The position numbers and the translations under genes are program-made. From an uncultured Alphaproteobacteria bacterium (GTDB lineage Bacteria > Pseudomonadota > Alphaproteobacteria > RF32 > CAG-239), in assembly GCA_944391315.1 (NCBI GenBank), contig CALXTD010000001.1, positions 14,888-78,887 on the forward strand: a stretch of 64,000 bases of DNA, in the 5' to 3' direction. Positions 13,130 through 45,208 of the stretch are shown here, in pieces; position 1 is the first letter of the stretch, and every line of letters starts with the position of its first letter. The notes under the pieces were generated by a model that was given only the letters and a program-made list of their open reading frames with translations, was not told the DNA's origin and did no database searches.

Positions 13130-14005
13130 TTATTTCTCCATAACTGCGGCGCACCAATCGTCGATTTGATAAAGTTTTATGAGTTTTAGTCCTTGTTGTT
13201 CATGAGCGGAAATTACCCAGTCTTTTTGGTCAGTAACAAAGCCGGATAAAATTGCGTAGCCGCCTTGATTTAAGGCTTTATATAAATCAGGAGCCATTTC
13301 AATCAAGGGGCGGGCCAATATGTTGGATAAAATGAGGTCATAAGGGGCATTGTTTTGCACAAAGTCTGATTTATAGCCATCGCTGACGGCGGCATGGATA
13401 ATTTCTTCTTCGTGGTTGGTGGCGGCGTTTTGTAAAGTGACAATAACGGCTTCTTCGTCGATGTCTACAGCGGTGATTTTTGCAGAAGAGCCAAAGAGTT
13501 TGGCTGCGCCGAGTGACAAAATGCCGGAGCCGGTTCCCATATCCAGAATTTTTTGGTGTTTTATGTTTTGGTTATTTAGCCAGCACAAAGCCTCCAAGCA
13601 GCCGCGGGTGGTCGGATGTTCGGAGCCAAAAGCCGTAGCAGCGTATATTTGCAGCGGTATTTTATCGGTTTTTGGAGCTTGTTTTTCGTGGATGCCATAA
13701 ATTAAAAAATCAGCAACCTCAACCGGTGGAAATTTAATGACATAGTCTTTGAGCCAGTTTTGGCTTTCAAGTAAAGTTTTTTCGTATGTTGGAAGGGTAA
13801 GTCCTTGATTTTGTGCGGCGGATGTAAAGTCTTGTTCGTTAAAGTTTATATCAGCATAAGCCGTAAGTTCTTCTTTGCCGTCATCGTGATAATCTAAGCT
13901 GGAGGTTGTGAAGTAGTCGTCAATGAAGTTGGTTAGATTTTCATCATATTTTTCTTGGGGCGCAAATTTGATTTGCCAGCAGCTGCCGCCTTTGTTTTCC
14001 GTCAT
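13130..14005 (-). CDS. prmA: Ribosomal protein L11 methyltransferase
   Basis: SAM-binding motif ILDMGTGSGILSLGAAK and LSNILARPL; abuts the pepP start. Confidence 0.85.
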   Translation of the reverse strand: MTENKGGSCWQIKFAPQEKYDENLTNFIDDYFTTSSLDYHDDGKEELTAYADINFNEQDFTSAAQNQGLTLPTYEKTLLESQNWLKDYVIKFPPVEVADFLIYGIHEKQAPKTDKIPLQIYAATAFGSEHPTTRGCLEALCWLNNQNIKHQKILDMGTGSGILSLGAAKLFGSSAKITAVDIDEEAVIVTLQNAATNHEEEIIHAAVSDGYKSDFVQNNAPYDLILSNILARPLIEMAPDLYKALNQGGYAILSGFVTDQKDWVISAHEQQGLKLIKLYQIDDWCAAVMEK

Positions 14006-14111
14006 TTTGTTTTTTTCCTAATTCTCTTTAATTTTGCTAAAGATTTGTTTACTTTATTGTGATAATAGTTCTTATCATATAAATATTAAAGATTTTTTTA
14101 AGAGTTTGGAT

Positions 14112-14885
14112 ATGAAAAAAACGGTTGTTCTTTTTAGTGCTTTATTGCTGGCTTCCTGTGCAATTCATGCCGGAGATCATTCTTTTTGGAATGAGCGTAA
14201 TGAGTGGATAGAATCGCATAATACTTATCCGGTTGAGTTCTTTTCTCAGGAGCCGATGTTGTTGAAAACAGACTATGTTTATGAAAACAGCCGTAAGTCA
14301 AAAGAGGTTTTGACAACTTATACCGGTTATTCGATGATTTCGAGCAAGACATATCAGAAAAACTATTATATAGCTGATAAAGTTAAAGCAGTTATGGAAG
14401 GCGGTTTGGTTGGAATCGGGTCTCCGATTTTGTTTGCCAAAGGCGAATCTGTGCCTTTGCTTGGGCAGGTCGTGGTTGATAATACGGACTTTGTGTTGGC
14501 GCCGGACAAAAGCGGTGAGTATGTTGTTTTAGTTCGCCGCGACGGGTCGGTTTATCCTAAAATAGGCGAGATAAGAAATAATCGTTTGCTTTTGTTAGAT
14601 GAGCATTTTATGCCAAAGCCAGATGATTTTCATTTTTCTCCGGTGGTCGAGGGTAAAATACAGCAGACCAAGCCGGTTAATGGTTATGATTTGCGCTATG
14701 AAGGCATTAAAAACGGAAAAATTACCATGACTTATATGGTTTACAATCCGGTGAATAATTCCAGCGGACAATTTGAGACTTTTGCTTTTCCGCAGAAGGC
14801 CGGTTTGTATCGTATCAATAATCTTGAGATAAAGATTTTGAGTGCCGATAATGATAAAATCGACTTTATGGTTGTGAAAGATTAA
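14112..14885 (+). CDS. Hypothetical lipoprotein
   Basis: MKKTVVLFSALLLASC lipobox. The longer track ORF starting at 14034 lacks a signal peptide and is probably too long. Confidence 0.6.
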   Translation: MKKTVVLFSALLLASCAIHAGDHSFWNERNEWIESHNTYPVEFFSQEPMLLKTDYVYENSRKSKEVLTTYTGYSMISSKTYQKNYYIADKVKAVMEGGLVGIGSPILFAKGESVPLLGQVVVDNTDFVLAPDKSGEYVVLVRRDGSVYPKIGEIRNNRLLLLDEHFMPKPDDFHFSPVVEGKIQQTKPVNGYDLRYEGIKNGKITMTYMVYNPVNNSSGQFETFAFPQKAGLYRINNLEIKILSADNDKIDFMVVKD

Positions 14886-14989
14886 ATTAATCCTCAATGT
14901 AAAAAAAATATTGTGGGGGCTTGATTTTAATAAAATTTTAGAGTAAAAAAGCTCTGAATTAGAGTTTTTTTTATATCGGAGATTAATTA

Positions 14990-15751
14990 ATGTCAGGTCA
15001 TTCCCAGTTTAAAAATATTATGTATCGTAAAGGGGCGCAAGACGCAAAAAAAGCAAAGGTTTTTGCTAAGCTGGCCCGTGATATTACCATTGCAGCGAAG
15101 AGTGGTTTACCTGAGCCGGATAAAAATCCGCGCTTGCGTTTGGCTATTCAGGCAGCTCGTGCAGAAAGTATGCCGAAAGACAATATTGAACGCGCTATTG
15201 CCAAGGCTACTCAAACAGCCGGTGGTGCTGATTATGTTTCTGCTCGTTATGAAGGATTTGGTCCGGGGAAGGTTGCTATTATCGTTGAGGCCTTGACCGA
15301 TAATAAAAATCGTACGGCCGGTAATGTTCGCACAATTTTTGGTAAACGCGGCGGTGTTATGGGTGAGAGCGGATCGGTTGCCTTTAACTTTGAGCGTATC
15401 GGTTATATTAAATATCCGCTTTCTGTTGCAGAGCCCGATAAGATGTTTGAAACAGCTTTGGAAGCCGGTGCAAATGATGTTGCTTCTGATGATGAGGCTC
15501 ATGAGATTGAGACTTTGCCAGATGATTTGAATATGGTTACCGAAACTTTGGAAAAGGCTTTCGGTACACCTTCTGCTTCTCGTTTGGATTGGAAGCCGAC
15601 CGTTAAGACTGATGTAACAGATTTGGAAACTGCTCAGAAGTTTTTGGAATTTGTTGATGCATTGGAAGATGATGACGATGTTCAAAAAGTTTATCACAAC
15701 GCCGAGTTTTCGGAAGAGGTGTTGAAAGCTTTGGAAAGCAGCGAAGATTAA
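14990..15751 (+). CDS. yebC: YebC/PmpR family DNA-binding regulatory protein
   Basis: MSGHSQFKNIMYRKGAQDAKKAKVFAKLARDITIAAK is the canonical YebC N-terminus. Confidence 0.9.
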   Translation: MSGHSQFKNIMYRKGAQDAKKAKVFAKLARDITIAAKSGLPEPDKNPRLRLAIQAARAESMPKDNIERAIAKATQTAGGADYVSARYEGFGPGKVAIIVEALTDNKNRTAGNVRTIFGKRGGVMGESGSVAFNFERIGYIKYPLSVAEPDKMFETALEAGANDVASDDEAHEIETLPDDLNMVTETLEKAFGTPSASRLDWKPTVKTDVTDLETAQKFLEFVDALEDDDDVQKVYHNAEFSEEVLKALESSED

Positions 15752-15800
15752 TTATCAAGGCAGGTTTAAGAGCCTGCCTTTTTTGTTTTAGGGGAGCAAA

Positions 15801-16292
15801 ATGAGAATCTTGGGGCTTGATCCCAGTTTGTCATCAACCGGCTGGGGTGTTATTGAAGTTGAAAATAATCGTATGAAATATGTGGCGGATGGTTTTATCA
15901 AAACTGATCCTAAGCAGCCTTTGCCCGAGCGTTTGGCTCAGATTCATAAAACACTTAATGAAGTGATTGAGCTCTACAAACCTCAAGAAGCCGCAATAGA
16001 ACAGGTTTTTTTGAACGACAATCCAAAATCAACCATAAAACTCGGTATGGCGCGCGGCGTGGTGATTTTGGCGCCGTCGCTATTTAATATTCCGGTGACA
16101 GAGTATGAGCCGACTTTGGTTAAAAAAGCCGTTGTAGGGGTGGGGCGTGCCGAAAAGTCTCAGGTGGAGGCGATGATAAAGGTTTTGCTTCCGGGGTGTA
16201 AGCCTAAAAATAATGACTCTTCCGATGCTTTGGCGATGGCGATTACGCATAATGCTTTTCGGAAGTCTGCAGCCATAAAACAAGCTTATTAA
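15801..16292 (+). CDS. ruvC: Crossover junction endodeoxyribonuclease RuvC
   Basis: MRILGLDPSLSSTGWGVIE and the RNase H-like fold catalytic residues. Confidence 0.9.
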   Translation: MRILGLDPSLSSTGWGVIEVENNRMKYVADGFIKTDPKQPLPERLAQIHKTLNEVIELYKPQEAAIEQVFLNDNPKSTIKLGMARGVVILAPSLFNIPVTEYEPTLVKKAVVGVGRAEKSQVEAMIKVLLPGCKPKNNDSSDALAMAITHNAFRKSAAIKQAY

Positions 16293-16373
16293 ATTTTTTT
16301 TGTTGATTTTTGTACATAAGATGATAATCTACTAAAGATTTAATCTTATTGTGTTACAAAAAAATATATAATT

Positions 16374-16982
16374 ATGAAAACAATTATTGTAAATGAGGCG
16401 GTTGAGCGGCTAAGAGCTATAGATCGTAATGCTTATATCCAAAAAAACAAGTTGATGCGGCGTTTTGATGAGAAGTTTCATACTTCATTATCTCAGAAAG
16501 ATGCTGATGATTTGTCTTTTGTTGATATTTTAAAAGCGCCGTGTGATGCCGATAAGGATATGGTGTATTCTGAATTGAAGAAAGTTGTAAATCATGGGCT
16601 TTCGGCGGAAGACAAAGAGTTTCTTTATCAGATTACGGAAACATGTTTGATTGATACGGCAACAGGTGACTTTGATGCTTTAATTGAAGACATTTTGCTG
16701 CCTTTGGCAGATTCTGTTTATTGGCAGAGGGCTTTGGGAATTCCGGCGCGATTTGAAGATGAGCGAGAGATAAGTGCTTTTTATTTTTATAAAGAGCCGT
16801 TTTGGATGGCTGAATATTTTGTAGCTTTGCCGTATGCGTATAGATGTGAGGCGATTTTGGTGCAGAACGGATATGTTCTTTCGGTTAAAATTGTCCCTTC
16901 GTTGCAAGATATTCCGCAGCTTAAAAGTTTGTTAAAGATGTCGGGAGATCGCTTTTTTAGGCTTTTTCATCCCAGAGAATAA
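16374..16982 (+). CDS. Hypothetical protein (orphan cassette inserted between ruvC and ruvA)
   Basis: 202-aa ORF with an AT-rich upstream region, immediately followed by a strong hairpin terminator. Confidence 0.55.
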   Translation: MKTIIVNEAVERLRAIDRNAYIQKNKLMRRFDEKFHTSLSQKDADDLSFVDILKAPCDADKDMVYSELKKVVNHGLSAEDKEFLYQITETCLIDTATGDFDALIEDILLPLADSVYWQRALGIPARFEDEREISAFYFYKEPFWMAEYFVALPYAYRCEAILVQNGYVLSVKIVPSLQDIPQLKSLLKMSGDRFFRLFHPRE

Positions 16983-16983
16983 A

Positions 16984-17014
16984 AACGGAATTCTTTTGAA
17001 TTCCGTTTTTATTT
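16984..17014 (+). terminator. Intrinsic terminator
   Basis: acggaattc / gaattccgt stem followed by a T-run. Confidence 0.55.
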
Positions 17015-17110
17015 TGTTCTTGATTTTTGTTAAAAAGTTCTTGCGTCTTAAGGGGAAGTTTTATATCTTGATTGTAGGTTGTAAAATGAGTTTAAGACAG
17101 GTGAATTTTA

Positions 17111-17785
17111 ATGATTGCAAAATTGCGCGGGGTTGTTGATACGCTCGGGAGTGATTATTGTATTATTGATGTGAACGGCGTGGGCTATTTGGTTTTTGCT
17201 TCGGCAAAAACTTTGGCTAAACTTGCTCGCGGGGCGCAGGTGGCATTATTGATTGAGACAATTGTGCGGGAAGACAGTATCTCGCTGTTCGGCTTTGCCG
17301 ATGCTTGGGAAAAAGAGTGGTTTTTGACTCTGACCAAAGTGCAAGGTGTGGGGGCCAAAGTTTGTTTGGCAATCTTATCGGTTTTATCCCCTATGCAGTT
17401 GGCACAAGCTGTTTCAGCTCAGGATAAAGCCTCATTTACACGCGCGGCCGGTGTGGGGCCAAAGTTAGCAGCGCGAATTGTTACCGAACTTAAAGATAAA
17501 ATTGTGACTATTCCTATGGAGGCAAGTATGAAGTCTGATCTTTCTTCAACAGTGGACGGAACGGCAGGAACGGAAACCGAAGGCTATGAAGATGCGTTGG
17601 TTGAAATGCAGTCTGAAGACAGCTCGATGAATATTGATGATGCGGTGTCGGCGCTGGTTAATCTCGGATATCAGCGAATTGAGGCTTATCGTGCGGTTAA
17701 TCTGGCTGCAAAAAATAATCCTGAGGCGGATGTGCCGAATTTGATTAAACTTGCTCTTAAAGAATTTGCTACGAAAGAAGTCTAG
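17111..17785 (+). CDS. ruvA: Holliday junction branch-migration complex subunit RuvA
   Basis: MIAKLRGVV N-terminus, HhH domain, C-terminal domain III. Confidence 0.9.
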   Translation: MIAKLRGVVDTLGSDYCIIDVNGVGYLVFASAKTLAKLARGAQVALLIETIVREDSISLFGFADAWEKEWFLTLTKVQGVGAKVCLAILSVLSPMQLAQAVSAQDKASFTRAAGVGPKLAARIVTELKDKIVTIPMEASMKSDLSSTVDGTAGTETEGYEDALVEMQSEDSSMNIDDAVSALVNLGYQRIEAYRAVNLAAKNNPEADVPNLIKLALKEFATKEV

Positions 17786-17788
17786 TCT

Positions 17789-18865
17789 ATGTCTGAAAAT
17801 AATCGAATCGTTAGTCCCGAAAAAATTAATGAAGATGACAATGAAAGTGCGAATCCGGTCAGCTTGCGTCCGAATTCTTTGGCTGAATTTGTCGGGCAGC
17901 GTGCTGTTTGTGATAATTTGAAAGTGTTTATTGAAGCGGCAAAAGTTCGCGGAGATGCATTAGATCACGTTTTGTTGTTTGGGCCTCCGGGACTTGGAAA
18001 AACAACTTTGGCCTCTATTATTGCAAAAGAGTTGGGTGTTGGTTTTAGGGCGACCTCGGCGCCAATGATTAGCAAGTCCGGTGATTTGGCTGCAATCTTA
18101 ACCAATTTGGAACGCAATGATGTGTTGTTTATTGATGAAATTCACCGCTTGAATCCGGCAATTGAAGAGGTTCTTTATTCCGCAATGGAAGATTTTCAGC
18201 TTGATTTGATTATCGGTGAAGGGCCTTCAGCTCGGTCGGTGCGAATCGATTTGCAGCCATTTACACTGGTTGGGGCGACGACACGTTCCGGTTTGCTGTC
18301 TACGCCGTTGCGTGAGCGTTTTGGTATTCCTCTGCGCTTAGATTTTTATTCGCCCGAGGATTTGGAAAAAATTGTTATCCGTGGAGCAAATCTTTTGGGA
18401 ATGCCGATTTCAGAAAACGGAGCGCGGGAAATTGCTAAGCGTTCGCGCGGAACGCCGCGTGTGGCAGGACGTCTTTTGCGGCGTGTGCGTGATTTCGGAA
18501 TTGTATCAAAAGCTGCGGAAGTTGATAATAAAATTGCTGATACGGCGCTCAGACGGCTTGATGTGGATGACTTTGGGCTTGATGCCTTTGACCGTCGTTA
18601 TCTGAACTGTATTTTGCATAATTATGGCGGAGGGCCGGTCGGAGCAGACACTTTGGCGGCAGCTTTGTCAGAAGAGCGAGACACGATTGAGGAAGTGATT
18701 GAGCCGTTTTTGCTCAAGCTTGGCTTCTTGCAACGGACACCGCGCGGGCGTGTTATTTCTGATTCCGGTTGTGATTATTTGGGGGCGCCACGCTTAAGAA
18801 AAGGCGTTAAACCAGCGTCCGAACAATTTGATTTGCTTAAAATTATTGAAGAAGAGGAAGTTTGA
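17789..18865 (+). CDS. ruvB: Holliday junction ATP-dependent DNA helicase RuvB
   Basis: [13 protein letters not shown] Walker A, FIDEIHRL Walker B, winged-helix C-terminus. Confidence 0.95.
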
Positions 18866-18866
18866 T

Positions 18867-19307
18867 ATGGTTGATGTAAAAGCTCCTGAAGGTGTTTTTG
18901 ACGGCAAAGTTTTTAAGTTTCCGGCACGGGTGTATTATGAAGATACGGATGCCGGTGGTGTGGTTTATTATGCCAATTATCTGAAATTTGCCGAGCGGGC
19001 ACGTACCGAATATATTCGTGCGCTTGGAATGTGTCAGCAACAGGCTTTGGAAGCAGAAGATAAGTGCGGTTTTATGGTTCGTTCTTTGACTGTGGACTAT
19101 AAAGCGCCGGCGGTACTTGATGATTTGTTGACCGTGACTTGTGAGATGGTAGAAGTTAGCGGGGCAAGAGCAGAGATGAAGCAAGAAGTTTTGTGCGGTG
19201 AAAAACTGCTTGCACTGATTTCGGTTAAGTTGGCTCATGTTTCTTTGTTGCGCAAACGTCCAGTTCGTATTCCGGAAGATTTGGTGCAAAAAATTGAGGC
19301 ATTGTGA
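18867..19307 (+). CDS. ybgC: Tol-Pal-associated acyl-CoA thioesterase YbgC (4HBT family)
   Basis: Hotdog-fold motif YYEDTDAGGVVYYANYLKFAERARTEY. Start taken at MVDVKA, directly after the ruvB stop. Confidence 0.8.
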   Translation: MVDVKAPEGVFDGKVFKFPARVYYEDTDAGGVVYYANYLKFAERARTEYIRALGMCQQQALEAEDKCGFMVRSLTVDYKAPAVLDDLLTVTCEMVEVSGARAEMKQEVLCGEKLLALISVKLAHVSLLRKRPVRIPEDLVQKIEAL

Positions 19308-19452
19308 AAAAAAGGTTTCAGTCATATTATCAAATATCTCGTCTTAGGCGGGATATTTTTTATATGAAATAAAGGTTTGACAAAAATATCTAACGGCTCT
19401 ATGCTGTTCGAACATTTTTATTATTTTATTCATTTATAATTTTTTATATATT

Positions 19453-20205
19453 ATGGTAAAGTATAGATCTATTCTTTCAGGTTTATGTACGGCAAGCACT
19501 GAGTTGTTCTCTTTGCACAAGAGTATGCCATCAAAAGTCAAAAAGACTCCCATGCTTTCGGCAGCGGATAAGGTTCAGCTTTTTGTTGATTCTTATTTGA
19601 GTGATTACTGCGCTTTTTATGATGTTGAACAAGGCGAGGTTCTTCAAATTGTGGTTCCGGCAAAAAGTTTGCAAAGTTATGTGATGGTTAATGAGGCGCG
19701 TGGCTTCCATGGTGTTGAGGTGTTGCGCTGTTGTCAGCAAGCAAAGCAAACAAATTTTGTGGGCGAGAGTTCGAATCGCGTTTTGCAGCATGGAAAGGTT
19801 GTGCGTTGGAAATATGCCGAAGTTTATTTAGTGCATAAGGCTTCTGACGGAACTTATGCTTTTGAAAAACTGTTTGCCAAAGATGAATGGCTTGACGGGG
19901 GCAAAGTTGCTGATGCTTTTAAGCGTGTGGCAATGTCTTCTAACCTTCATATTACGGGAAATGTTTTTCGTAGTGAGGTAAATCTTTTTAACTCGTTGCC
20001 GGCAATAAAAATTTCTGCTTGGTGTCAGGCTTTGGACAATGATTGTTTTTTGCTCTGTGATTTGAATAATGGGGCGATCCGTTGTTTGCCTTATGCAAAA
20101 GCGGCGTTTTCAGAATTTTCTGATTTGCGCCATATCCGTACCGGTGCCTTGTTTTTGCGCTTGGCATCTTTGGTTCCGGGAGAATACCGTTATGAAAGAA
20201 TTTGA
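19453..20205 (+). CDS. Hypothetical protein, paralog 1 of a three-member tandem family
   Basis: 250 aa; shares EKLFAKDEWLDGGKVADAFKRVA and C-terminal LLCDLNNGAIRCLP motifs with the next two ORFs. Confidence 0.55.
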   Translation: MVKYRSILSGLCTASTELFSLHKSMPSKVKKTPMLSAADKVQLFVDSYLSDYCAFYDVEQGEVLQIVVPAKSLQSYVMVNEARGFHGVEVLRCCQQAKQTNFVGESSNRVLQHGKVVRWKYAEVYLVHKASDGTYAFEKLFAKDEWLDGGKVADAFKRVAMSSNLHITGNVFRSEVNLFNSLPAIKISAWCQALDNDCFLLCDLNNGAIRCLPYAKAAFSEFSDLRHIRTGALFLRLASLVPGEYRYERI

Positions 20206-20213
20206 CTGATTGA

Positions 20214-20237
20214 GCCGGCTTTGTGCCGGCTTTTTTG
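20214..20237 (+). terminator. Intrinsic terminator
   Basis: gccggc-tttgt-gccggc followed by tttttt. Confidence 0.55.
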
Positions 20238-20351
20238 TGCTTGAAAAATCAATATTTTTGAAAATTTTGGAAAATTTTTCATTTTAGGGCTTGATATGTT
20301 TTTCATTTTATGATATAGCCTTTAATGAAAACTTATTAATTTATATATATT

Positions 20352-21068
20352 ATGAAATTAGATATATCATTTGGTCAGCAGCTGACCATAGATTATGGCA
20401 CAAAAAGAGGCCACGGCCCTCATCCTGCGTTTAAAAATTTTACAGATAAAATCCGTAAAATGCTAAAAACGCGAAGCTTTCAAGACTTCTGCAAGGCGCA
20501 GGGGGTGAAGAGCGGAAGCCTTTTGCAAATAACGATAGGGCATGAAAATATCCCCTATAAGTTAAATGATTTCGGTGACTATTTAGAAGGTTACCGAATC
20601 GTGAAGGAGGGTGAAGACAAGCAGTTTTTGTTCAAGCGCGGCAAATGCATTGAGCGTCCTCGTTTTGGTGAACTGATCATTTGTCATTCTGAGATGTTTT
20701 ATGTATGGTATGTTAACAAAGCATGGCATGCAGAAAAACTTTTGGGTGATGATGAATGGCTTGATAGAACTAAGGTTGCGGCTGCGTTTTTGAAGCTGGC
20801 CGAGGAACGTAACTATGCCGTTGGTGCGGTTGAGCTTTATTATGATGAAACTAAAAAACGCGCTTGCTGGAAGGCCGATGCAGTTGGCATAGAAAACAAA
20901 GAGCAACGCGAATTGATTTGCTGCTTTGACGGCGGAACGTTGAAAGACCTTCCTGCCGGAAGCTTAAAAGCTGAACCGAAGGATATTGGTGTTGGTCGGT
21001 ATTTGAAGACTAAATTTAACCACTTTATTTATAGAGGAAGTGGAAAATTTGGTCGAGTTACCGATTAA
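20352..21068 (+). CDS. Hypothetical protein, paralog 2
   Basis: 238 aa; EKLLGDDEWLDRTKVAAAFLKLA and LICCFDGGTLKDLP motifs. Confidence 0.55.
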   Translation: MKLDISFGQQLTIDYGTKRGHGPHPAFKNFTDKIRKMLKTRSFQDFCKAQGVKSGSLLQITIGHENIPYKLNDFGDYLEGYRIVKEGEDKQFLFKRGKCIERPRFGELIICHSEMFYVWYVNKAWHAEKLLGDDEWLDRTKVAAAFLKLAEERNYAVGAVELYYDETKKRACWKADAVGIENKEQRELICCFDGGTLKDLPAGSLKAEPKDIGVGRYLKTKFNHFIYRGSGKFGRVTD

Positions 21069-21078
21069 ACTTAATGAA

Positions 21079-21111
21079 AGTGTCGCAACTTTTGTTGCGG
21101 CACTTTTTTTC
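21079..21111 (+). terminator. Intrinsic terminator
   Basis: gtgtcgcaac-tttt-gttgcggcac followed by a T-run. Confidence 0.55.
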
Positions 21112-21131
21112 GATTTAAATAAACTTTTTGT

Positions 21132-21160
21132 TTGACAAAATTTCGTCAATATGGTATATC
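21132..21160 (+). promoter_or_regulatory. Sigma70-like promoter candidate (TTGACA-N17-TATATC) for paralog 3
   Basis: Exact TTGACA hexamer, a 17-bp spacer and a TATAtc hexamer, 40 bp upstream of the 21201 ATG. Confidence 0.3.
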
Positions 21161-21200
21161 CTTATTTGAAATAAATTTATTATTAAAAAAATATTATTTT

Positions 21201-21986
21201 ATGGAAGCAAAAATTAAAATCAATGGAGTGACACGCGTTATTGGTACTGAAAAACTCAGCTGTGGTGCAAATTCATACTATCGCTCGCCTAGTGAGAGTT
21301 ATGATGAAAAAGTCGAACGGTTTTTTAAGCATTCTGAATATGTCAATTTTGCTATGGAAAACCTCGGACTGTCGGACGGAGATACCGTTCAGCTTCAGAA
21401 GCCAACAAGGCATAATGAAGCCATAGTTGATTGTGGTCCTTTTGGCAAAAAAGCCAATGAGCATATTTATCTGGAAAATGTGCTGATTGTTTCGGGGGAT
21501 GCCAATGGTTGTTATAATTATGTGGCGACTTTGGAACAGTCTAAAAACAGCGGACAATACCAGAAAAAAGCGCGACGCGTGCACGAATCGGCTACTTATT
21601 TGGTTCAGAGAAAATATGCAGGCTATAGGCTAGAAAAACTTCTCGACAACTTGGATTGGCTTGATGTGGTAAAGTCAGAGAAAGCTATGATGCGTTTAGC
21701 TAAAATACATGGCTATAAGTCTGAGGAGCCCACAGAAATAAGAAGCTGCAAAATCCGAACTGAAAAGTTTTCGCTCGATTTGAAAATTGCTCGAGTTAAG
21801 AAAGTTAAGTCTTTCTTTGGAAAGGTTAGAATCGTGGTTCTTTCTCTGAATTCCGGCAAAATTTGGTTGTTGCCGGCTGATCAAGTTGAACTTGGGGAAG
21901 ATGTATCGCAAAAGAAATGCATCATGACCCAGTTCGTGTGGCTCAGACAGGTAGGAACCAGCGGAAATTTCTACATCTCCGAGTAA
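21201..21986 (+). CDS. Hypothetical protein, paralog 3 (start chosen at MEAKIKING; the longer track ORF would overlap the promoter-like site)
   Basis: LEKLLDNLDWLDVVKSEKAMMRLA and VVLSLNSGKIWLLP motifs. Confidence 0.5.
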   Translation: MEAKIKINGVTRVIGTEKLSCGANSYYRSPSESYDEKVERFFKHSEYVNFAMENLGLSDGDTVQLQKPTRHNEAIVDCGPFGKKANEHIYLENVLIVSGDANGCYNYVATLEQSKNSGQYQKKARRVHESATYLVQRKYAGYRLEKLLDNLDWLDVVKSEKAMMRLAKIHGYKSEEPTEIRSCKIRTEKFSLDLKIARVKKVKSFFGKVRIVVLSLNSGKIWLLPADQVELGEDVSQKKCIMTQFVWLRQVGTSGNFYISE

Positions 21987-21992
21987 AAAATT

Positions 21993-22017
21993 GGCTGCCT
22001 TCGGGCGGCCTTTTTTG
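21993..22017 (+). terminator. Intrinsic terminator
   Basis: ggctgcc-ttcg-ggcggcc followed by tttttt. Confidence 0.5.
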
Positions 22018-22145
22018 TTTCTGGTTAAAAAAATTTTTCTTAGATTGCTTTTTATGGTTGAAAAAATTTTTTTTATTGCTAAGTTATCTCTTGTATTAGT
22101 TGTTTAACAATTAAGATTTACAAAAAACCATATGGAGTAATTAAT

Positions 22146-22613
22146 ATGAAAAAACTTTTGAGTTTGTTCTGCGCTTTCGCTTTCTTAACAGGTTGTTCCG
22201 CTTTTGATTCTAACGGCGGTCTGTTTGGCGGTGCTGAGTGCGAATCTAGAGAAGCTCGTGACTTCATGGCTCATGCTGAAGATAGAGTTTTCTTTGCTTT
22301 CGATAGCTCTGCTTTGTCTGACAATGCTGTTGAGATTTTGCAAACACAGGTTGATTGGTTGAAAGCTAACGAAAATGTTGACGTTATCGTTCAAGGTTAC
22401 TGCGATGAAAGAGGTACCAGAGAGTACAACTTGGCCTTGGGTGAACGTCGTGCAAATGCCGTTAAACAATACCTGATTTCTCAAGGTGTTGCTGCTGACA
22501 GAATTTCTACAATCTCTTACGGTAAAGAAAGACCGGCTGTTCTCGGTAACAACGAAACCGCTTGGGCTCAGAACCGTCGTGCTGTAACTGTTGTTAAGGC
22601 TTCTGCTGAATAA
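22146..22613 (+). CDS. pal: Peptidoglycan-associated lipoprotein Pal (OmpA-like domain)
   Basis: Lipobox LTGCS; OmpA-like motif GYCDERGTREYNLALGERRANAV. Confidence 0.9.
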   Translation: MKKLLSLFCAFAFLTGCSAFDSNGGLFGGAECESREARDFMAHAEDRVFFAFDSSALSDNAVEILQTQVDWLKANENVDVIVQGYCDERGTREYNLALGERRANAVKQYLISQGVAADRISTISYGKERPAVLGNNETAWAQNRRAVTVVKASAE

Positions 22614-22771
22614 TTACAGTCAGATTGTATTCTGGTTTGAAAAAAGTGTTCGCTTATCGGGCGAGCACTTTTTTTCTGTTCAGAGGCTGAAAAATAAGGC
22701 TTGAGATTGAAGGAAAATTGCTTTACTCTAGGCTGTGAATTTGAAATTTTTTTCGTATTGGGAGCTTTGTG

Positions 22772-23644
22772 ATGAAAAATTGGAAACTGTCGTTGGTTGT
22801 TTTGTCTTGTGCGGTTATGCCACTGGCTGCTTGGGCTCAGACAGGGCTTGAGGCTGATGTGCGGCAGTTGCGCGATGATTTGCGTGTGTTGCAAAATCAA
22901 ATTTATCGTGGGCAGATAGATGGTGATCCGACGGCAAATTCCGGTACTGTACAACAGCGCCTTAGCCAGATGGAAGAGACCGTGCGCCAGATTTCAGGAC
23001 GTATGGATGAGTTAGAGCATCAGTTTAAGCAAGTTGATGAGCGCTTTAAGGTGCTTAATCAGGATATTGATGTGCGCTTTAAGCTTCTGGAAGGAAAAAA
23101 GATTGATGCCAAAGGTTTGGGTACTGAAGCTAAGGGAAAAAAGTTTGACGCGCCAGTTGCTGCGAATCCGGCAAAGTCTTTGTCCGGTGATTCTGTCAGC
23201 GGTGAAGAGCTTGCTCCTTTAGAATTGCCTAAGAAAGAGGCTCCGAAACCAGTTGCCAAGCTCTCGGTTGATGAGCTGTATAAAAAAGCGATGGATGCTT
23301 ATAATGCCTCTGATTATGCCGCAGCAGAAGCTTCGTTTAATCTTATTCTGAAAGATTATCCGAAAGAGAAATTAGCCGGTAATGCTCAGTATTGGCTGGG
23401 TGAAGTTTCTTATCAGCGCAAAGATTATGCTAAGGCTGCCGTTGCTTTTGGTAAGGCTTATAAAGACTATAAAGACGGAAACAAAGGTGCTGACAGCCTT
23501 TATAAGCTCGGAATGTCGATGCAACAGCTTGATAAAAAAGCTGAGGCTTGTGCGGCTTATCAATCTTTGCCAACAGAGTTTCCGAAAGCTGATAAGGCTT
23601 TGTTGTCTAAAGCTGCCGCTGCTGCGAAAAAACTTTGCAAGTAA
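22772..23644 (+). CDS. cpoB: Tol-Pal system protein CpoB/YbgF (coiled-coil plus TPR)
   Basis: Signal peptide, long coiled coil, C-terminal TPR (YWLGEVSYQRKDYAKAAVAFGKAYKDY); lies directly after pal. Confidence 0.8.
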   Translation: MKNWKLSLVVLSCAVMPLAAWAQTGLEADVRQLRDDLRVLQNQIYRGQIDGDPTANSGTVQQRLSQMEETVRQISGRMDELEHQFKQVDERFKVLNQDIDVRFKLLEGKKIDAKGLGTEAKGKKFDAPVAANPAKSLSGDSVSGEELAPLELPKKEAPKPVAKLSVDELYKKAMDAYNASDYAAAEASFNLILKDYPKEKLAGNAQYWLGEVSYQRKDYAKAAVAFGKAYKDYKDGNKGADSLYKLGMSMQQLDKKAEACAAYQSLPTEFPKADKALLSKAAAAAKKLCK

Positions 23645-23668
23645 TTGCGCAGTTGTTTGAGGCTGTTA

Positions 23669-24751
23669 ATGGAAAAATTTTTTGCTGCGAATCCGATTGT
23701 TGGTGATGTTATTGCCGCCGGTGTTTCCGGCGGTGCCGATTCATTGGCACTGGTATTGCGGCTTAATGACTGGGCAAAGAAAAACGGTAAAAAAGTTGTG
23801 GCGTTGACGGTTGATCATAAGCTGCGTTCCGAATCGGGCGATGAGGCAGCTTATGTGGCGCAACTGATGAAGCAATTTGGAATCGAGCATCATATTCTAA
23901 CTTGGGAAGGCGAAAAGCCGACCTCGGGAATCGAAGAAGCGGCGCGTTTGGCTCGTTATCGTTTGATTGCTGATTGGTGTCAGAAAACCGGTGTTAAGGT
24001 TTATGCAACCGGACATCATATGCGCGATCAGGCGGAGACCTTTTTGCTGCGGTTGGCTCGTGGAAGCGGGGTTTCAGGTTTGAGTGGTATTTTGCCTTGC
24101 AGCGAGATGGCGGGCTTGAAAATTATTCGGCCGCAGCTTGGTGATGCTCCCGAAGAACTTAAAGCTTATTTGAAGGAAAAAAATGTGCAATGGGTGGAAG
24201 ACCCTTCTAATCAAAATGATGATTTTTTACGTGTGAAAATTCGTAAGTTTTTGCCCCTTCTGGAAACAGAGGTCGGAATTTCGGTTCGGCGCTTGGCTGA
24301 TACCTGTGGTGTTTTGGCGCGGACCAGAAGCTTTGTTGACAGCGAAGTTTCAAAGCTGTTTTCAAATAATGTTAAAAAATGGGCAAAAGTTGGGGCTTCT
24401 TTGCCGTTGTCCTTTTTTGCATCGCTTCATGAAGAAATGCAGTATCGGCTGTTGGCTTTGATGATTAAAACCATTGGGCAAAATATCTATACTCCAGAAG
24501 CAAAAGAGGTCTTGAATATTGTTGAGAGTTTACTCTCTTCTGCTCCAAAGGGGCGGACACTCGGCGGATGTGAAATCTTTGTGTTTCAAAAATGCTTGTG
24601 GGTAGTGGCCGAACGCGCCTCTGCTCAAGTGCTTTCAAAAAAAGTTTGGGAGGATTTTGTTAAAGATAATCCTCGTTTTGAAAAAGTGTCGTTGCCCTAT
24701 AAATTGCGGGCGGCGCTTGTCTTGGGCGGAAAAGGGGAAAATGCCTCTTGA
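23669..24751 (+). CDS. tilS: tRNA(Ile)-lysidine synthetase
   Basis: PP-loop AGVSGGADSLAL; start moved to the ATG after RBS gagg, because the track ORF overlaps the cpoB stop. Confidence 0.85.
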   Translation: MEKFFAANPIVGDVIAAGVSGGADSLALVLRLNDWAKKNGKKVVALTVDHKLRSESGDEAAYVAQLMKQFGIEHHILTWEGEKPTSGIEEAARLARYRLIADWCQKTGVKVYATGHHMRDQAETFLLRLARGSGVSGLSGILPCSEMAGLKIIRPQLGDAPEELKAYLKEKNVQWVEDPSNQNDDFLRVKIRKFLPLLETEVGISVRRLADTCGVLARTRSFVDSEVSKLFSNNVKKWAKVGASLPLSFFASLHEEMQYRLLALMIKTIGQNIYTPEAKEVLNIVESLLSSAPKGRTLGGCEIFVFQKCLWVVAERASAQVLSKKVWEDFVKDNPRFEKVSLPYKLRAALVLGGKGENAS

Positions 24752-24811
24752 GTTTTTGACTCTTTCTCCCTATATTTAATAGTTGCTTGATTATTTTGAT
24801 AAGGAAACTCA

Positions 24812-26674
24812 ATGAAACAGTTTAAGTCTATGGCGGTGTGGCTTGCCGCGTTGGTTATCTTGTCCGTGCTGATGAATGGTGCAGGGCCTTCTTATCAGGG
24901 AAAAGGGCAGTCGCTCGCTTTTTCTGATTTTATGAATATGGCGGAAAATAAAAAAGTCAGCAGCGTGGTGATTGAGGGGGCGCAAATTACCGGCGTTTTG
25001 AGTGATGGCAGCGCATTTAATTCTTATTCTCCCTATGATCCGAGCATGGTTGAAACCTTGCGCAAAAATGGAGTGAAGGTTGAGGCTCGGCCGCTGGATA
25101 CGTCTTCTTCAACTTTTTGGAATGTATTTATTTCTTGGTTTCCGATGATTTTGTTGGTCGGCGTGTGGATTTATTTCATGCGGCAGGCAAACTCCGGCAA
25201 TAATAAGGCCATGAGTTTTGGAAAGTCGCGCGCTCGTCTGATTGAAAACAACAAAAAAGTAACCTTTGCCGATGTGGCCGGTTGTGACGAATCGAAGCAA
25301 GAGCTCGAAGAGATTATCGATTTCTTGAAAGATCCGGCTAAGTTTCAACGTTTGGGCGGAAAAATTCCGAAGGGCGTTTTGCTTGTCGGCCCTCCGGGAA
25401 CAGGTAAAACCTTGTTGGCCAAAGCGGTGGCCGGTGAGGCTAATGTGCCGTTCTTCTCAATTTCTGGTTCGGACTTTGTGGAGATGTTTGTCGGTGTCGG
25501 TGCGTCACGCGTGCGTGATATGTTTGCTCAGGCTAAGAAAAATGCTCCTTGCTTGTTGTTCATTGATGAAATTGATGCGGTAGGGCGTCATCGCGGTGCC
25601 GGTCTTGGCGGCGGTAATGATGAGCGCGAGCAGACCTTAAACCAGCTTCTTGTCGAAATGGATGGTTTTGATGCTAATGAAAATGTGATTTTGATTGCAG
25701 CAACCAACCGTCCCGATGTTTTGGACCCGGCTTTGCTGCGTCCGGGGCGTTTTGACCGTCAGGTTACGGTGGCTAATCCTGATGTTAAAGGGCGTGAGGA
25801 GATTTTGAAAGTTCATGTGCGCAAAGTTCCTTTGGCAAAAGATGTGAATTTGTCGGTTATTGCTCGCGGAACGCCGGGGTTCTCCGGTGCCGATTTGGCA
25901 AACCTTGTGAATGAAGCAGCCTTGCTGGCGGCGCGCAAAAACAAGCGCAAAGTTACCTCAAAAGACTTTGATGATGCGAAAGACAAAGTCCTTATGGGGA
26001 ATGAGCGTAAGTCGATGGCAATGGATGAAAAAGAGAAAAAACTCACCGCTTATCATGAGGCCGGACACGCAATTTGCGGTCTGTTTACCGAAGGGGCTGA
26101 CCCTATTCACAAAGCAACGATTATTCCGCGCGGTCGGGCGCTGGGTATGGTGCAATATCTGCCGGAAAAAGATCGTTATTCCTTCTCTCGGCAGCAGATG
26201 TTGGCGCGCCTTGTTTCGGTTATGGGGGGACGTGCGGCCGAAGAGCTTAAGTTCGGGCATTCGGAAGTAACCTCCGGTGCGTCTTCTGATATCGCTGCGG
26301 CAACAAATCTTGCGCGTTCCATGGTGACCGAATGGGGAATGAGCGATAAGCTTGGTCCGGTTCTTTATGCTGAAAATTCCGGTGAAGTCTTTTTAGGCAA
26401 GTCGGTTACGCAGAACAAAAATATGAGTGAAGATACCGCGCGTCTTGTTGATGCAGAAATCAAGTCCTTAGTGCTTGATGCGCACGACAAAGCCGTCTCT
26501 CTTTTGAAAGAGAAAAACACCGAGTGGGAGCGTTTGGCACAAGCCCTCATTGAGTATGAAACCCTTACCGGCGAAGACATTGACAAGGTCATCAAAGGTG
26601 AGCCGATTGACATCACTCATGATGCGCCGGTGGCGGAGGAGAAGAGGACGCAGGCGTCTGTCCCTGAGCTATAA
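24812..26674 (+). CDS. ftsH: ATP-dependent zinc metalloprotease FtsH
   Basis: Two N-terminal TM segments, AAA Walker A GPPGTGKT, second region of homology, HEAGHA zinc motif. Confidence 0.95.
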
Positions 26675-26683
26675 AAAAAGTTC

Positions 26684-26978
26684 GTATAATGGTCGACTAA
26701 TACAGATTTTGCGGATAGGAAAAATGCTCATGTACTACTGTGTACACTGCGCTTTTTCCTTCCTTAAATCTTATTATTCGACTCATTCTCCAAACTTTTT
26801 GAAAACTGTGTATAACAGCACATCTAGAGGCATTTTACTAAAAGCTCGTATAACGGGCAACTAATACAGATTTTGCGGGTCTCCGACATCCTCACGTACT
26901 GCTCTGTACGCTGCGGTGTCGTCGCCCTTAAATCTTATTATTTGCCGCGTTCTACGAGCTTTTACAAAGCGCGTGCAA
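26684..26978. repeat. Structured intergenic repeat element, locus B (two tandem units)
   Basis: gtataa.gg.c.actaatacagattttgcgg ... cttaaatcttattatt.g occurs twice, with one gtgtataacagcacatctagaggcatttta block; homologous to 1124-1286. Confidence 0.6.
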
Positions 26979-27017
26979 TGGGTAACTTATAGAAAATTTA
27001 TTTTGTCTAAATTTGGG

Positions 27018-27046
27018 TTGACATTTTGAGAGAGGTTTGTTATTTT
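27018..27046 (+). promoter_or_regulatory. Sigma70-like promoter candidate (TTGACA-N17-TATTTT)
   Basis: Hexamers and spacing read directly; lies 40 bp upstream of the 27088 ATG. Confidence 0.3.
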
Positions 27047-27087
27047 TTGCTTGTTCATCTTATTATTAATTTAAACATTATAAATTT

Positions 27088-27873
27088 ATGAAAAAAAATT
27101 ATTATTTTGTAATAGGTCAAAAAGATCTTGATGTGGTGGAAGCCATTAAGCTTTTAGAGGCTTATCATTTGCCGTATCGCTGTTTGGAAACGCCTTATAT
27201 CTTTACGAAAACCGAAGAAAATGAGCTTAAGCAAAAAGGTTATGAGCCTTATTATGTTCATGTGTCGTATCGTTCTTTTCCGGATGAAGAGGAAAAGTTT
27301 GACAGTTCCTTCCTTTATCGGTTAATCGGTTTGTTGAATAAAACCATTTCGGATTGGCAACGCGATGTGATGACTTATTGCGAGAGGCCTTTTGAAAAAG
27401 AGTGGTCAAATCGTCTAAGGGGCTTTGTGATACGTGGTTGTTCGCGTTCGTATATTGAAAAATTGCAAGCTGAAAATCGGAAAGCTTTGGGTTTTGATGA
27501 CAAGGCAGAAGAAATGGCTATTCAAGCTGTGGACGAGGCGATGAAGCGTTTTTCATCAAATCGAGATTATTTGATTGTTCACTGGGATTATAAGCCCCAG
27601 AGTTCGGAATTTGAAGCTTTTTTGCCGGTGTTAGACCGAGTTTTCTGGTTGCAGAATTTTGTAAACGTTCTGATTGTAACGTCTGAATGTGCTTTGTATT
27701 ACGGCTATCGGAATATTGCTTGGGATATGGTTACTTTTGGCACGGCGACGGCCTGCGTTACGGATAATATGACGGATTTTCTTTATTCGATTGCTCATCA
27801 TCGAATGGAAGATGCCGAAAAGTTCTTGAAAACTAAAACAGCCGAACTTCGCAACCTCGGTCTTTTGTGGTAA
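27088..27873 (+). CDS. Hypothetical protein (orphan cassette)
   Basis: 261-aa ORF with its own promoter-like site and terminator; no recognisable motifs. Confidence 0.55.
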   Translation: MKKNYYFVIGQKDLDVVEAIKLLEAYHLPYRCLETPYIFTKTEENELKQKGYEPYYVHVSYRSFPDEEEKFDSSFLYRLIGLLNKTISDWQRDVMTYCERPFEKEWSNRLRGFVIRGCSRSYIEKLQAENRKALGFDDKAEEMAIQAVDEAMKRFSSNRDYLIVHWDYKPQSSEFEAFLPVLDRVFWLQNFVNVLIVTSECALYYGYRNIAWDMVTFGTATACVTDNMTDFLYSIAHHRMEDAEKFLKTKTAELRNLGLLW

Positions 27874-27879
27874 AACCTT

Positions 27880-27910
27880 AGGAGAAAGGAAAATTCCTTT
27901 CTCCTTTTTT
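27880..27910 (+). terminator. Intrinsic terminator
   Basis: aggagaaagg-aaaatt-cctttctcct followed by tttttt. Confidence 0.55.
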
Positions 27911-28018
27911 GTTACAATCTTTAATATCTTGTTTTCGGAATAAACGCAGAAAGGGCTTGTCGATCGGGTTTTTTGTGTTTATGATGTTGCTATATTTTTT
28001 ATTAAAGTGAGGGTTTTT

Positions 28019-29365
28019 ATGAGTGATAAATTATTTGGAACAGACGGTGTGCGCGGGGTTGCCAATCAATTTCCGATGACGGCTGATTTTGCGCTTAAAC
28101 TGGCGATGGCGGCCGGAAATTTGGTTTGCACGTCAAAGAAAAAAGTGGCGATTGCCCGAGATACCCGTGTTTCGGGCAAAATGCTCGAATCGGCTTTGGC
28201 CTCCGGTTTTATGGCGGCCGGTGTTGATGTGTTGTTGCTTGGGGTTTTGCCAACGCCGGCTTTGACTACGGTCACCCCAACGCTTGATGTTGATATGGCG
28301 GTAATGATTACCGCGTCACACAACCCGTATCATGACAATGGTATCAAGCTAATTAATGCTCAAGGCGACAAGTTTTCTGATGAAGATACCGCCAAAATCG
28401 AAGCGGCGCTAAAAGCCGAAGATTTTTCTCTTTCTCCTGATAATATCGGGCAAGTGACAGAAGTTCCCGATGCGGTTGTAGCCTATTTAGATAAGGTTTT
28501 GCCGATTGTCGGTGCTGATGAGCAGCCGCTTAAAGGCTTGCGTATTGTGCTTGATTGTGCCAATGGAGCTTTTTATAAAATTATGCCCGAGATTTATAAA
28601 AATCTTGGTGCCGGTGTGATTGCTTTGGCGCATGAACCTGATGGTTGTAACATCAACAAAGACTGCGGTTCTCAGCATATTGATAATATGCTCAAAGTTG
28701 TTAAAGAAGCTCATGCTCACCTTGGTATTGCTTGCGACGGCGATGGTGACAGAATCATTGTTTGCAACGAAAAAGGCGAAAAAGTTGCGAGCGAACAGCT
28801 GATTGCATTTCTTGCGCAAAATATGAAAGAGCAAGGTGTTCTTAACAATCGTCCGGTGGTTTCGACAATCGTGTCTAATACCGGATTAGATAGTTTTATC
28901 CGCTCTTTGGGGGTTGAATATTATGCAACCAAAGTCGGTGAGCGCTATGTGATTGAAAAGATGAAAGAAGTCAAAGCAGCTGTTGGCGGTGAAGAATCAG
29001 GGCATTTAGTGTTGGGAGATTATTCAAAAACCGGTGATGCTTTGGTTGTTGGTTTGTTCTTGAGTTTGGCTTTGGTCAACAGCAAAAAGAAAATGAGCGA
29101 GCTGTTTCCGGTCTTTTCTTTGGAGCCGGTGGCGGCGTTTAATTTGCGTTTTGCTGATAATGCCGTGGTTAAAAAAATTATGGCCGATGAACAAGTTTTG
29201 AAAGCAGCCGATGCGGCTTCACAAAAAGTGGCAACCTGCGGGCGCGTGGTTTTCCGTGCCTCGGGGACAGAGCCGGTGGTTCGTATTTGGGTTGGCGGCA
29301 AAGATGAAACTTTGGTTAATGAAGCTGCTGCTGATATTAAAAAAGCTGTTGAACAAGCTGCTTAA
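28019..29365 (+). CDS. glmM: Phosphoglucosamine mutase
   Basis: LFGTDGVRG N-terminus, active-site ITASHNP, GEESGH motif. Confidence 0.9.
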   Translation: MSDKLFGTDGVRGVANQFPMTADFALKLAMAAGNLVCTSKKKVAIARDTRVSGKMLESALASGFMAAGVDVLLLGVLPTPALTTVTPTLDVDMAVMITASHNPYHDNGIKLINAQGDKFSDEDTAKIEAALKAEDFSLSPDNIGQVTEVPDAVVAYLDKVLPIVGADEQPLKGLRIVLDCANGAFYKIMPEIYKNLGAGVIALAHEPDGCNINKDCGSQHIDNMLKVVKEAHAHLGIACDGDGDRIIVCNEKGEKVASEQLIAFLAQNMKEQGVLNNRPVVSTIVSNTGLDSFIRSLGVEYYATKVGERYVIEKMKEVKAAVGGEESGHLVLGDYSKTGDALVVGLFLSLALVNSKKKMSELFPVFSLEPVAAFNLRFADNAVVKKIMADEQVLKAADAASQKVATCGRVVFRASGTEPVVRIWVGGKDETLVNEAAADIKKAVEQAA

Positions 29366-29435
29366 TTTTTGATGTCTAGTTATATGAAAAAAACGCGGGG
29401 ATTTGCTCCTCGCGTTTTTTGTTGAAGATAAAAAC

Positions 29436-43636: not shown

Positions 43637-43660
43637 GGCAGAGATGAGATAAGGAGAAAG

Positions 43661-45181: not shown

Positions 45182-45208
45182 GGCAGAGATGAGATAAGGA
45201 GAAGTAAG

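Follow-up and report, generated by a model that had tools for sequence, protein, structure and literature searches.

The 64,000-nucleotide stretch analyzed here (hereafter, the window; positions 14,888 to 78,887 of contig CALXTD010000001.1, from an uncultured Alphaproteobacteria bacterium) carries 3 consecutive genes, designated A, B, and C, between ybgC and pal-cpoB. In the canonical cluster of Proteobacteria (for example, that of E. coli), which is ordered ybgC-tolQ-tolR-tolA-tolB-pal-cpoB, this is the tolQRAB slot, and the array stands exactly at the place of tolB. The gene order on the forward strand of the window is yebC, ruvC, an orphan open reading frame (ORF), ruvA, ruvB, ybgC, A, B, C, pal, cpoB/ybgF, tilS, and ftsH. 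Our comparisons indicate that A, B, and C represent 3 ancient subfamilies of one small protein family that have kept their order beside pal, and that they vary strongly between strains of one species. A sequence-only reading of the window had described the 3 ORFs as diverged paralogs of an unknown family that form stand-alone transcription units in this slot; the ORFs are present at its coordinates, including the ATG of C at 21201. The genes and signals of the locus are as follows.

18867..19307, forward strand: ybgC, tol-pal-associated acyl-CoA thioesterase, the upstream flank (TIGR02799, E-value 4.7e-44, above cut-off)
19332..19358, forward strand: intrinsic terminator after ybgC (12-bp stem followed by a T run)
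19377..19405, forward strand: promoter-like site of A, TTGACA-17-TATGCT (10/12 matches in the promoter scan)
19406..19452, forward strand: leader of A, A/U-rich, without a Shine-Dalgarno sequence, ending TATATATT-ATG (read from the sequence; conserved in distant lineages)
19453..20205, forward strand: paralog A, 250 aa, A-type subfamily
20212..20232, forward strand: intrinsic terminator after A (conserved in the related loci L010, L009, and L003)
20291..20319, forward strand: promoter-like site of B, TTGATA-17-TATAGC, with TG before the -10 element (read from the sequence)
20352..21068, forward strand: paralog B, 238 aa, B-type subfamily, the protein chosen for modeling
21076..21107, forward strand: intrinsic terminator after B (14-bp stem; conserved)
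21132..21160, forward strand: promoter-like site of C, TTGACA-17-TATATC, TG-extended (read from the sequence)
21201..21986, forward strand: paralog C, 261 aa, C-type subfamily, the copy that always adjoins pal
21993..22010, forward strand: intrinsic terminator after C (conserved)
22146..22613, forward strand: pal, peptidoglycan-associated lipoprotein, the downstream flank, always adjoining the array (TIGR02802, E-value 1.1e-43, above cut-off; synteny)
22769..23644, forward strand: cpoB/ybgF, context (TIGR02795, E-value 1.3e-30, above cut-off)

The flanks are authentic, with ybgC, pal, and ybgF each scoring above the curated cut-off of its own NCBIfam equivalog model, which confirms the placement of the array between ybgC and pal/cpoB. 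Pfam scans of 30 other large ORFs of the window found no tolQ, tolR, tolA, or tolB, and the gene tables of the related loci (denoted below by L numbers) contained no tolQRAB either.

Pairwise BLASTP comparison gave significant E-values for all 3 pairs (A-B, 9e-09, with 24% identity over 135 aa; A-C, 7e-04; B-C, 3e-04), so that a chance sharing of motifs was not borne out. In a non-circular test, one hidden Markov model (HMM) per subfamily was built solely from the sequences of other organisms: the B-type HMM matched C at 3e-17 and A at 1e-15, and the A-type HMM matched C at 2.5e-16 and B at 5e-10. Alignment of subfamily alignments against each other by hhalign returned probabilities of 99.4–99.5% across 214–237 columns. 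These matches indicate that A, B, and C are homologous along their full length, beyond the shared motif, and they uphold the description of 3 diverged paralogs. The true start of C is the ATG at 21201; the longer ORF of 284 aa from a TTG at 21132 is spurious, because this TTG is part of the TTGACA -35 hexamer of C itself and the orthologs begin at the ATG. The sole DNA repeat touching the region is a 32-nt match (81%) between A and B, and no conversion tract from paralog to paralog was found among the DNA of A, B, and C. Two candidate mechanisms were rejected: (i) a diversity-generating retroelement, as there was no pair of template and variable repeats, and no reverse transcriptase in the Pfam scans of the 30 other large window ORFs; and (ii) an internal duplication of the protein, for which hhalign of the N-terminal against the C-terminal half gave a probability below 1%.

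Every family member in the fetched loci was classified with the 3 subfamily HMMs. The arrangement A-B-C-pal occurs in the window, L009, and L010 and also in the distant L007 and L018, B-C-pal in L001 and L005, and C-pal in L013 and L012, while in L019/L020 two very divergent copies precede pal. The copy number per locus is thus 1 to 3, and the lineages without A, or without A and B, are taken as losses. These lineages are mutually distinct, their TilS proteins being 46–60% and their FtsH proteins 79–92% identical. The upstream neighbor of the array varies in every deep lineage; ybgC stands there in the species group of the window only, and elsewhere its place is taken by a gene for an HD-domain protein, by other orphan families, or by a 115-aa ORF that follows a metallophosphatase gene. 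No break occurs at the junctions A|B, B|C, and C|pal, and in all loci with known adjacent DNA, amounting to 7 to 9 independent contexts, the array lies directly before pal. The sole context without demonstrated pal adjacency is the short contig L017 (1-2095), in which the B-type member P0073 lies downstream of 2 helix-turn-helix (HTH) genes, one of them MqsA-antitoxin-like, and no pal occurs within the 260 bp after P0073.

Since the subfamilies and the order A-B-C-pal are kept in lineages whose TilS proteins are 46–60% identical, A, B, and C are 3 ancient subfamilies and no recent expansion. The A-B-C order upstream of pal-cpoB-tilS-ftsH is older than the split of at least 5 or 6 genus-level lineages, and the array has been inherited vertically at one locus. 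The suggestion in the sequence-only reading that the array is an expanded accessory set is therefore rejected: mobile effector, immunity, or defense islands do not behave as these ancient subfamilies do, with their fixed A-B-C-pal order in at least 5 or 6 deep lineages.

Extra orphan cassettes are present in the same locus of relatives (L003, 312-905 and 2884-3261; L009, 3048-3800; L001, 7594-9139; L007, 6874-8074). One of them encodes a 190-197-aa family with the motif YPELCxGxE upstream of A, with tandem copies of this gene in L001 and L007; a second cassette, a 125-aa ORF inserted in the space from B to C, is flanked by a duplicated terminator and TTGACAAAA promoter. The locus thus seems to accept modules composed of promoter, gene, and terminator.

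Within the species, A, B, and C are the fastest-evolving genes of the neighborhood, with proteins 73–89% identical between strains. Synonymous divergence (dS) and the ratio of nonsynonymous to synonymous divergence (dN/dS) were estimated from 3 strain pairs by the NG86 method. Compared with L010, the flanking proteins are 94–100% identical (most of them 97–100%), with dS of 0.20–0.39. The corresponding values are 87% protein identity, dS 0.29, and dN/dS 0.26 for A; 79%, 1.10, and 0.12 for B; and 73%, 1.05, and 0.18 for C. In L005, A is deleted entirely, and B and C are 89% and 77% identical to the window copies. Over the strain comparisons, dN/dS of A, B, and C ranged from 0.11 to 0.26, and all copies had intact ORFs, as expected of real genes under purifying selection.

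The coding DNA of B and C shares 75–78% nucleotide identity, whereas the intergenic spacers around them share 86–98%. In sliding windows, identity inside B and C jumps abruptly between 100% and about 65%. Against L005, B is 97–100% identical at 20397-20800 and 75–78% on both sides of this segment, and in C identity is 63–83% over the first 570 nt and 100% over the last 200 nt. Amino-acid variation is spread across the protein, with a peak in the N-terminal 30 residues. Because dS is 1.05–1.10 in B and C and 0.20–0.39 in their neighbors, the B and C alleles are several-fold older than the surrounding DNA, and the abrupt switches of identity inside both genes mark the alleles as mosaics, exchanged and recombined between strains by homologous recombination. 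In the neighborhood as a whole (14000-29400, compared with L010 and L005), most spacers share 94–100% and coding DNA 93–95% nucleotide identity, with dS of 0.2–0.4. Between strains, coding DNA is mostly less conserved than intergenic DNA, and the non-coding DNA of this genome appears unusually constrained.

Each of the 3 genes is preceded by a TTGAC(A)AAA -35 element, followed after about 17 nt by a TG-extended -10-like element. The claim that each gene has its own promoter-like site and its own terminator stood in full for the terminators; for the promoters, the site of A alone passed the rule of the promoter scan, and those of B and C fell below it but are conserved in strains. The TTGACAAAA -35 element upstream of A-type genes is conserved in L010, L009, L007, and L018; the site of B is conserved in L010, L009, and L003, with TATAGT as the -10 element there; and the pattern TTGAC(A/G)AA(A/T)..(A/G)TATG(G/C)TA found upstream of C-type genes also occurs in L018, L013, L012, and L001. 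The promoter elements are thus conserved across strains, and those of A and C also across deep lineages. Because a terminator follows each gene and a promoter-like site precedes it, also in L007 and L018, a single operon is disfavored, and A, B, and C are predicted to be separate transcription units, as the sequence-only reading had proposed from sequence signals.

The leaders are about 45 nt long, consist of A and U only, contain no Shine-Dalgarno sequence, and end in (T)ATATATT-ATG, an ending that is conserved in L007, L018, L001, and L013; pal, by contrast, always has CCATATGGAG. This leader style is common to other orphan genes of the window, in which about half of all genes have a Shine-Dalgarno-like sequence. 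A cis-regulatory RNA in the leaders was rejected, as they had no Rfam match (best E-value 0.19, below the gathering score) and their folding was not significant (z = -1.07 for the leader of A). The promoter and leader of pal (about 22040-22145) are nearly invariant among lineages whose TilS proteins are merely 46–60% identical, with the conserved pattern ATTGCT(T)AAGTTA..TGTATTAGTTGTTTAACAATTAAGA..CCATATGGAG and no Rfam match. Because this conservation goes far beyond the need of promoter function alone, the region upstream of pal may be a regulatory site or an RNA element.

The family is small. Each paralog has 5–17 relatives among 5.8 billion clustered proteins, and 1.84 billion cluster representatives, searched exhaustively with a profile, yielded 67 at E ≤ 1e-3, nearly all of 210-290 aa (a few shorter ones are probably partial) and none with an extra domain. 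All members come from metagenome assemblies or metagenome-assembled genomes (MAGs) labeled "uncultured Alphaproteobacteria" or "proteobacterium". Searches of Pfam, NCBIfam, PHROGs, and PADLOC with A, B, C, and distant members gave no significant or recurrent match, in agreement with the claim that no known domain is recognizable; the same holds for Pfam with all 43 aligned family members at E ≤ 10. PADLOC-DB returned 0 families for A, B, C, and 3 distant members, and the Pfam immunity families (Imm families, SUKH, and similar) did not match. A mobile-element origin was likewise rejected: plasmid and phage collections gave no tblastn match to the family, and IMG/VR and JGI metagenomes gave no family match. 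Against all PDB sequences (E ≤ 10), the family profile gave a single match, 4qxz_A ("uncharacterized protein", E-value 0.009), collinear with profile positions 56-155. This match arose from alignment A2 only, was not reproduced by the B-type profile, by C alone, or by Foldseek, and is treated as chance; no mention of 4qxz_A was found in the literature. The family is thus without detectable sequence or fold relatives and restricted to one clade of uncultured Alphaproteobacteria.

None of the A, B, and C proteins has a membrane segment, a signal peptide, or a lipobox, and their maximum 19-residue hydropathy is 0.69–1.08, compared with 1.57 in the signal peptide of Pal. The isoelectric point (pI) is 8.7–9.2 in the window copies and about 8–9.4 in most members. 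The AlphaFold2 model of protein B, computed from a 43-sequence alignment, is confident and compact (predicted local distance difference test score, pLDDT, 90.4; predicted template-modeling score, pTM, 0.83), with a β-rich body and 3 helices. From the N-terminus it comprises about 25 disordered residues, a short helical hairpin, a β-sheet region with a long hairpin, a central helix, which corresponds to the conserved W-x-A-E-x-L-L...W-L-D...A-F motif, and finally another sheet; the chain ends in a well-folded C-terminal strand (pLDDT about 90). Only Q59, L137, A145, G195, and T220 are near-invariant throughout the family, and no catalytic motif or residue constellation typical of enzymes occurs among the conserved positions. 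In the C-type subfamily, the long hairpin carries a polar/basic stretch, QSKNSGxYQRxAxRVLES, that does not vary. Foldseek searches of the PDB and BFVD with the B model gave nothing significant: the best match was E. coli RnlA (6y2q_A; E-value 0.024, template-modeling (TM) score 0.12, root-mean-square deviation 18 Å), and TolB (2ivz_A) scored an E-value of 0.2 and a TM score of 0.11. The profile searches and the search with the predicted structure (structure prediction being one of the checks proposed in the sequence-only reading) detected no well-known housekeeping family and no significant relative. The proteins are soluble, basic, and non-enzymatic-looking, and the modeled family is a candidate new fold.

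Many orphan genes are present in the window. Two of them, orf202 (16374-16982, between ruvC and ruvA) and orf261 (27088-27873, after ftsH), have no Pfam or PHROG match, possess their own terminators (16976-17015 and 27880-27905), and have A/T-only leaders without a Shine-Dalgarno sequence. Between strains, their proteins are 76–92% identical, compared with 97–100% in their neighbors, with dN/dS of 0.15–0.29, and this fast evolution is like the behavior of A, B, and C. A second trio of tandem paralogs (570, 506, and 306 aa) lies at 41924-46129; the 3 proteins have in common a domain of about 140 aa at the C-terminus with a match to phrog_4245 (unknown function; E-values 2e-8, 7e-17, and 2e-7), the 506-aa middle protein has a weak Phage_base_V/VgrG-like match, and the second and third genes have near-identical leaders (agagatgagataaggaga). 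This trio may be a remnant of a phage tail or contractile injection system. At 3082-6219, the window encodes a single-chain (type IIG) restriction-modification enzyme of 1045 aa that is Eco57I/MmeI-like; the A/T leader of its gene lacks a Shine-Dalgarno sequence.

The reading that we favor is that A, B, and C would be non-enzymatic cytoplasmic binding proteins whose partner would be an antagonist that changes rapidly (a phage protein or injected toxin, for instance), and that the array would form a chromosomal, vertically inherited defense- or immunity-like module. Such an arms race is favored because loci of this type show alleles that are old and mosaic, together with polymorphism for presence/absence. 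On this evolutionary pattern, the binder function is a possible, rather doubtful, proposal; the explanation as a whole (a clade-restricted ancient triplet of separate units with fast, recombining evolution, together with the binder role) is plausible but tentative. With low confidence, it also implies that A, B, and C would not stand in for the Tol proteins of the same slot, which belong to the membrane and periplasm. Of the effector, immunity, or defense roles named in the sequence-only reading, what stands is the fit of hyper-divergence and mosaic alleles to an arms race, whereas there was no defense or immunity match and no adjacent toxin or secretion gene.

Several points weigh against this proposal: (i) its functional part draws solely on the evolutionary pattern; (ii) patchiness and mobility are usual in defense and immunity genes, and a vertical array of fixed order is more like a lineage-specific core function; (iii) no toxin, secretion, or mobile-element gene adjoins the array; (iv) neither PADLOC, for A, B, C, and the 3 distant members, nor the immunity families gave a match; (v) the unbroken adjacency to pal could point to an envelope link instead; and (vi) the elevated dS was estimated by the simple NG86 method on few strains.

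The envelope link leads to an unlikely alternative, in which the triplet serves the envelope or cell division in connection with Pal-CpoB: in a clade with tolQRAB lost or moved, it would regulate or assist Pal/CpoB from the cytoplasm or after non-classical export. This would fit the position of the array in the tolB slot and directly before pal whatever its upstream flank, as well as the lack of tolQRAB in the scanned window ORFs and in all related loci. However, proteins without a signal peptide, lipobox, or membrane segment are unlikely to contact the periplasmic Pal directly, and terminators stand between every gene and pal. Pal is also 84–94% conserved where the family is merely 15–40% identical, so that the two co-evolve poorly for direct partners; some lineages do without A, or without A and B; and mosaic hypervariation between strains is unusual for an envelope housekeeping factor. 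A bolder form, in which the triplet is a new module tied functionally to Pal-CpoB in a diderm clade without the TolQRAB motor and allows a Tol-independent running or regulation of the Pal/CpoB outer-membrane tether, is very unlikely; if true, it would account for the lasting attachment of the array to pal throughout the history of the clade, and the module would consist of proteins whose fold has no known relatives.

It is likewise improbable that A, B, and C bind nucleic acids or act as regulators, in the manner of nucleoid-associated proteins or RNA binders, for example. The basic pI of most members, the invariant polar/basic patch of the C-type subfamily, and the lack of catalytic motifs would suit such a role, as would weak fold echoes that include Whirly, N-terminal domains of RnlA, and ERF-type binders of single-stranded DNA, but these fold matches all fall short of significance (E ≥ 0.02, TM ≤ 0.2). 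Moreover, A+T-rich genomes commonly encode basic proteins, Pfam found no HTH or other known nucleic-acid-binding domain, and fast allele turnover is unexpected for a global regulator.

Quite unlikely, too, is that the proteins are secreted effectors against a host or competitors, exported independently of a signal peptide by a type IV secretion system (T4SS), a type VI secretion system (T6SS) or contractile injection system, or the flagellar apparatus, with the disordered N-terminus as the export signal. Their 25–30 N-terminal residues are both disordered and hypervariable, their alleles are mosaic and fast-evolving, the organism appears in metagenome assemblies only and its window is rich in orphan genes, and a phage-tail/VgrG-like paralog cluster lies 20 kb away. 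Against this, the array lacks a linked secretion-system gene in every lineage, effector repertoires are not typically inherited vertically in a fixed order, the well-folded C-terminal strand is unlike the flexible tail of T4SS substrates, and no eukaryotic-like domains are present. Finally, a recently expanded mobile accessory island, or functionless decaying genes, in the gap of a tolQRAB deletion is essentially excluded: the copy number of 1 to 3, the extra cassettes, and the missing A of L005 would agree with it, but the conservation of subfamilies and order across deep lineages, the intact ORFs with low dN/dS, the confident and compact B model, the empty plasmid, phage, and viral searches, and the lack of any integrase, transposase, repeat boundary, or DNA repeat linking the paralogs all speak against it.

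In Proteobacteria, Tol-Pal is considered nearly universal and, in many cases, essential; here an entire clade retains ybgC, pal, and cpoB yet has an unrelated, ancient trio of paralogs in the tolQRAB slot. Complete genomes could reveal whether its members do without the Tol motor and which role Pal and CpoB have in that case. Vertically fixed "core" genes with old, recombining, mosaic alleles like those of surface-antigen or defense loci are an unusual pattern, and would be a useful model for lineage-specific genes in arms races; if the family is merely a fast-evolving orphan family of minor function, its interest is local only. What is new here is the age and order of the triplet, the strain-level hyper-divergence with mosaics, and a tiny family without relatives.

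Comparison with the canonical Tol-Pal cluster revealed the same chromosomal slot, a true ybgC upstream, a true pal and cpoB downstream, and a surrounding order (ruvCAB ... tilS-ftsH) typical of Alphaproteobacteria. The genes in the slot differ: (i) the TolQ/TolR stator has MotA_ExbB and ExbD domains and transmembrane helices, neither of which was found in A, B, and C; (ii) unlike TolB and TolA, they have no signal peptide or anchor and, by Pfam and NCBIfam, no TolB_N and PD40 β-propeller or TolA domain III; (iii) no Tol protein was among the PDB profile matches (E ≤ 10), and there was no fold likeness to TolB; and (iv) A, B, and C are mutual paralogs, whereas the 4 Tol proteins are not, and none of these is homologous to the family.

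Orphan immunity arrays are known from polymorphic toxin systems (Rhs, contact-dependent inhibition (CDI), and T6SS) and from the acquired interbacterial defense islands of Bacteroidales. The A-B-C array resembles them in its tandem, strongly diverged, individually promoted paralogs without enzymatic motifs and in its high allelic diversity and recombination. It differs in that no toxin, Rhs/CDI/VgrG gene, integrase, or toxin remnant is adjacent (the neighbors are ybgC, pal, or orphan genes in all loci), that its proteins are larger (240–280 aa) and belong to no Pfam immunity family, and that it is fixed at one locus, with order and vertical inheritance kept over deep divergence. Like single-gene anti-phage defense systems (PADLOC-DB), it evolves fast, is polymorphic for presence/absence, and has promoters and terminators that stand alone, with variable orphan cassettes nearby in some strains, but A, B, and C have no PADLOC match or recognizable effector domain. 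As to mobility, the array keeps to one locus by vertical inheritance and had no match in the plasmid, phage, and viral sets, yet the presence of A varies and the locus takes up cassettes. RnlA (6y2q_A) and 4qxz_A have similarly mixed α+β domains with antiparallel sheets, although neither match held up. Because A, B, and C could be assigned neither to the Tol proteins nor to immunity arrays or defense systems, we file them, as members of no known kind and of unknown mechanism, as a new protein family.

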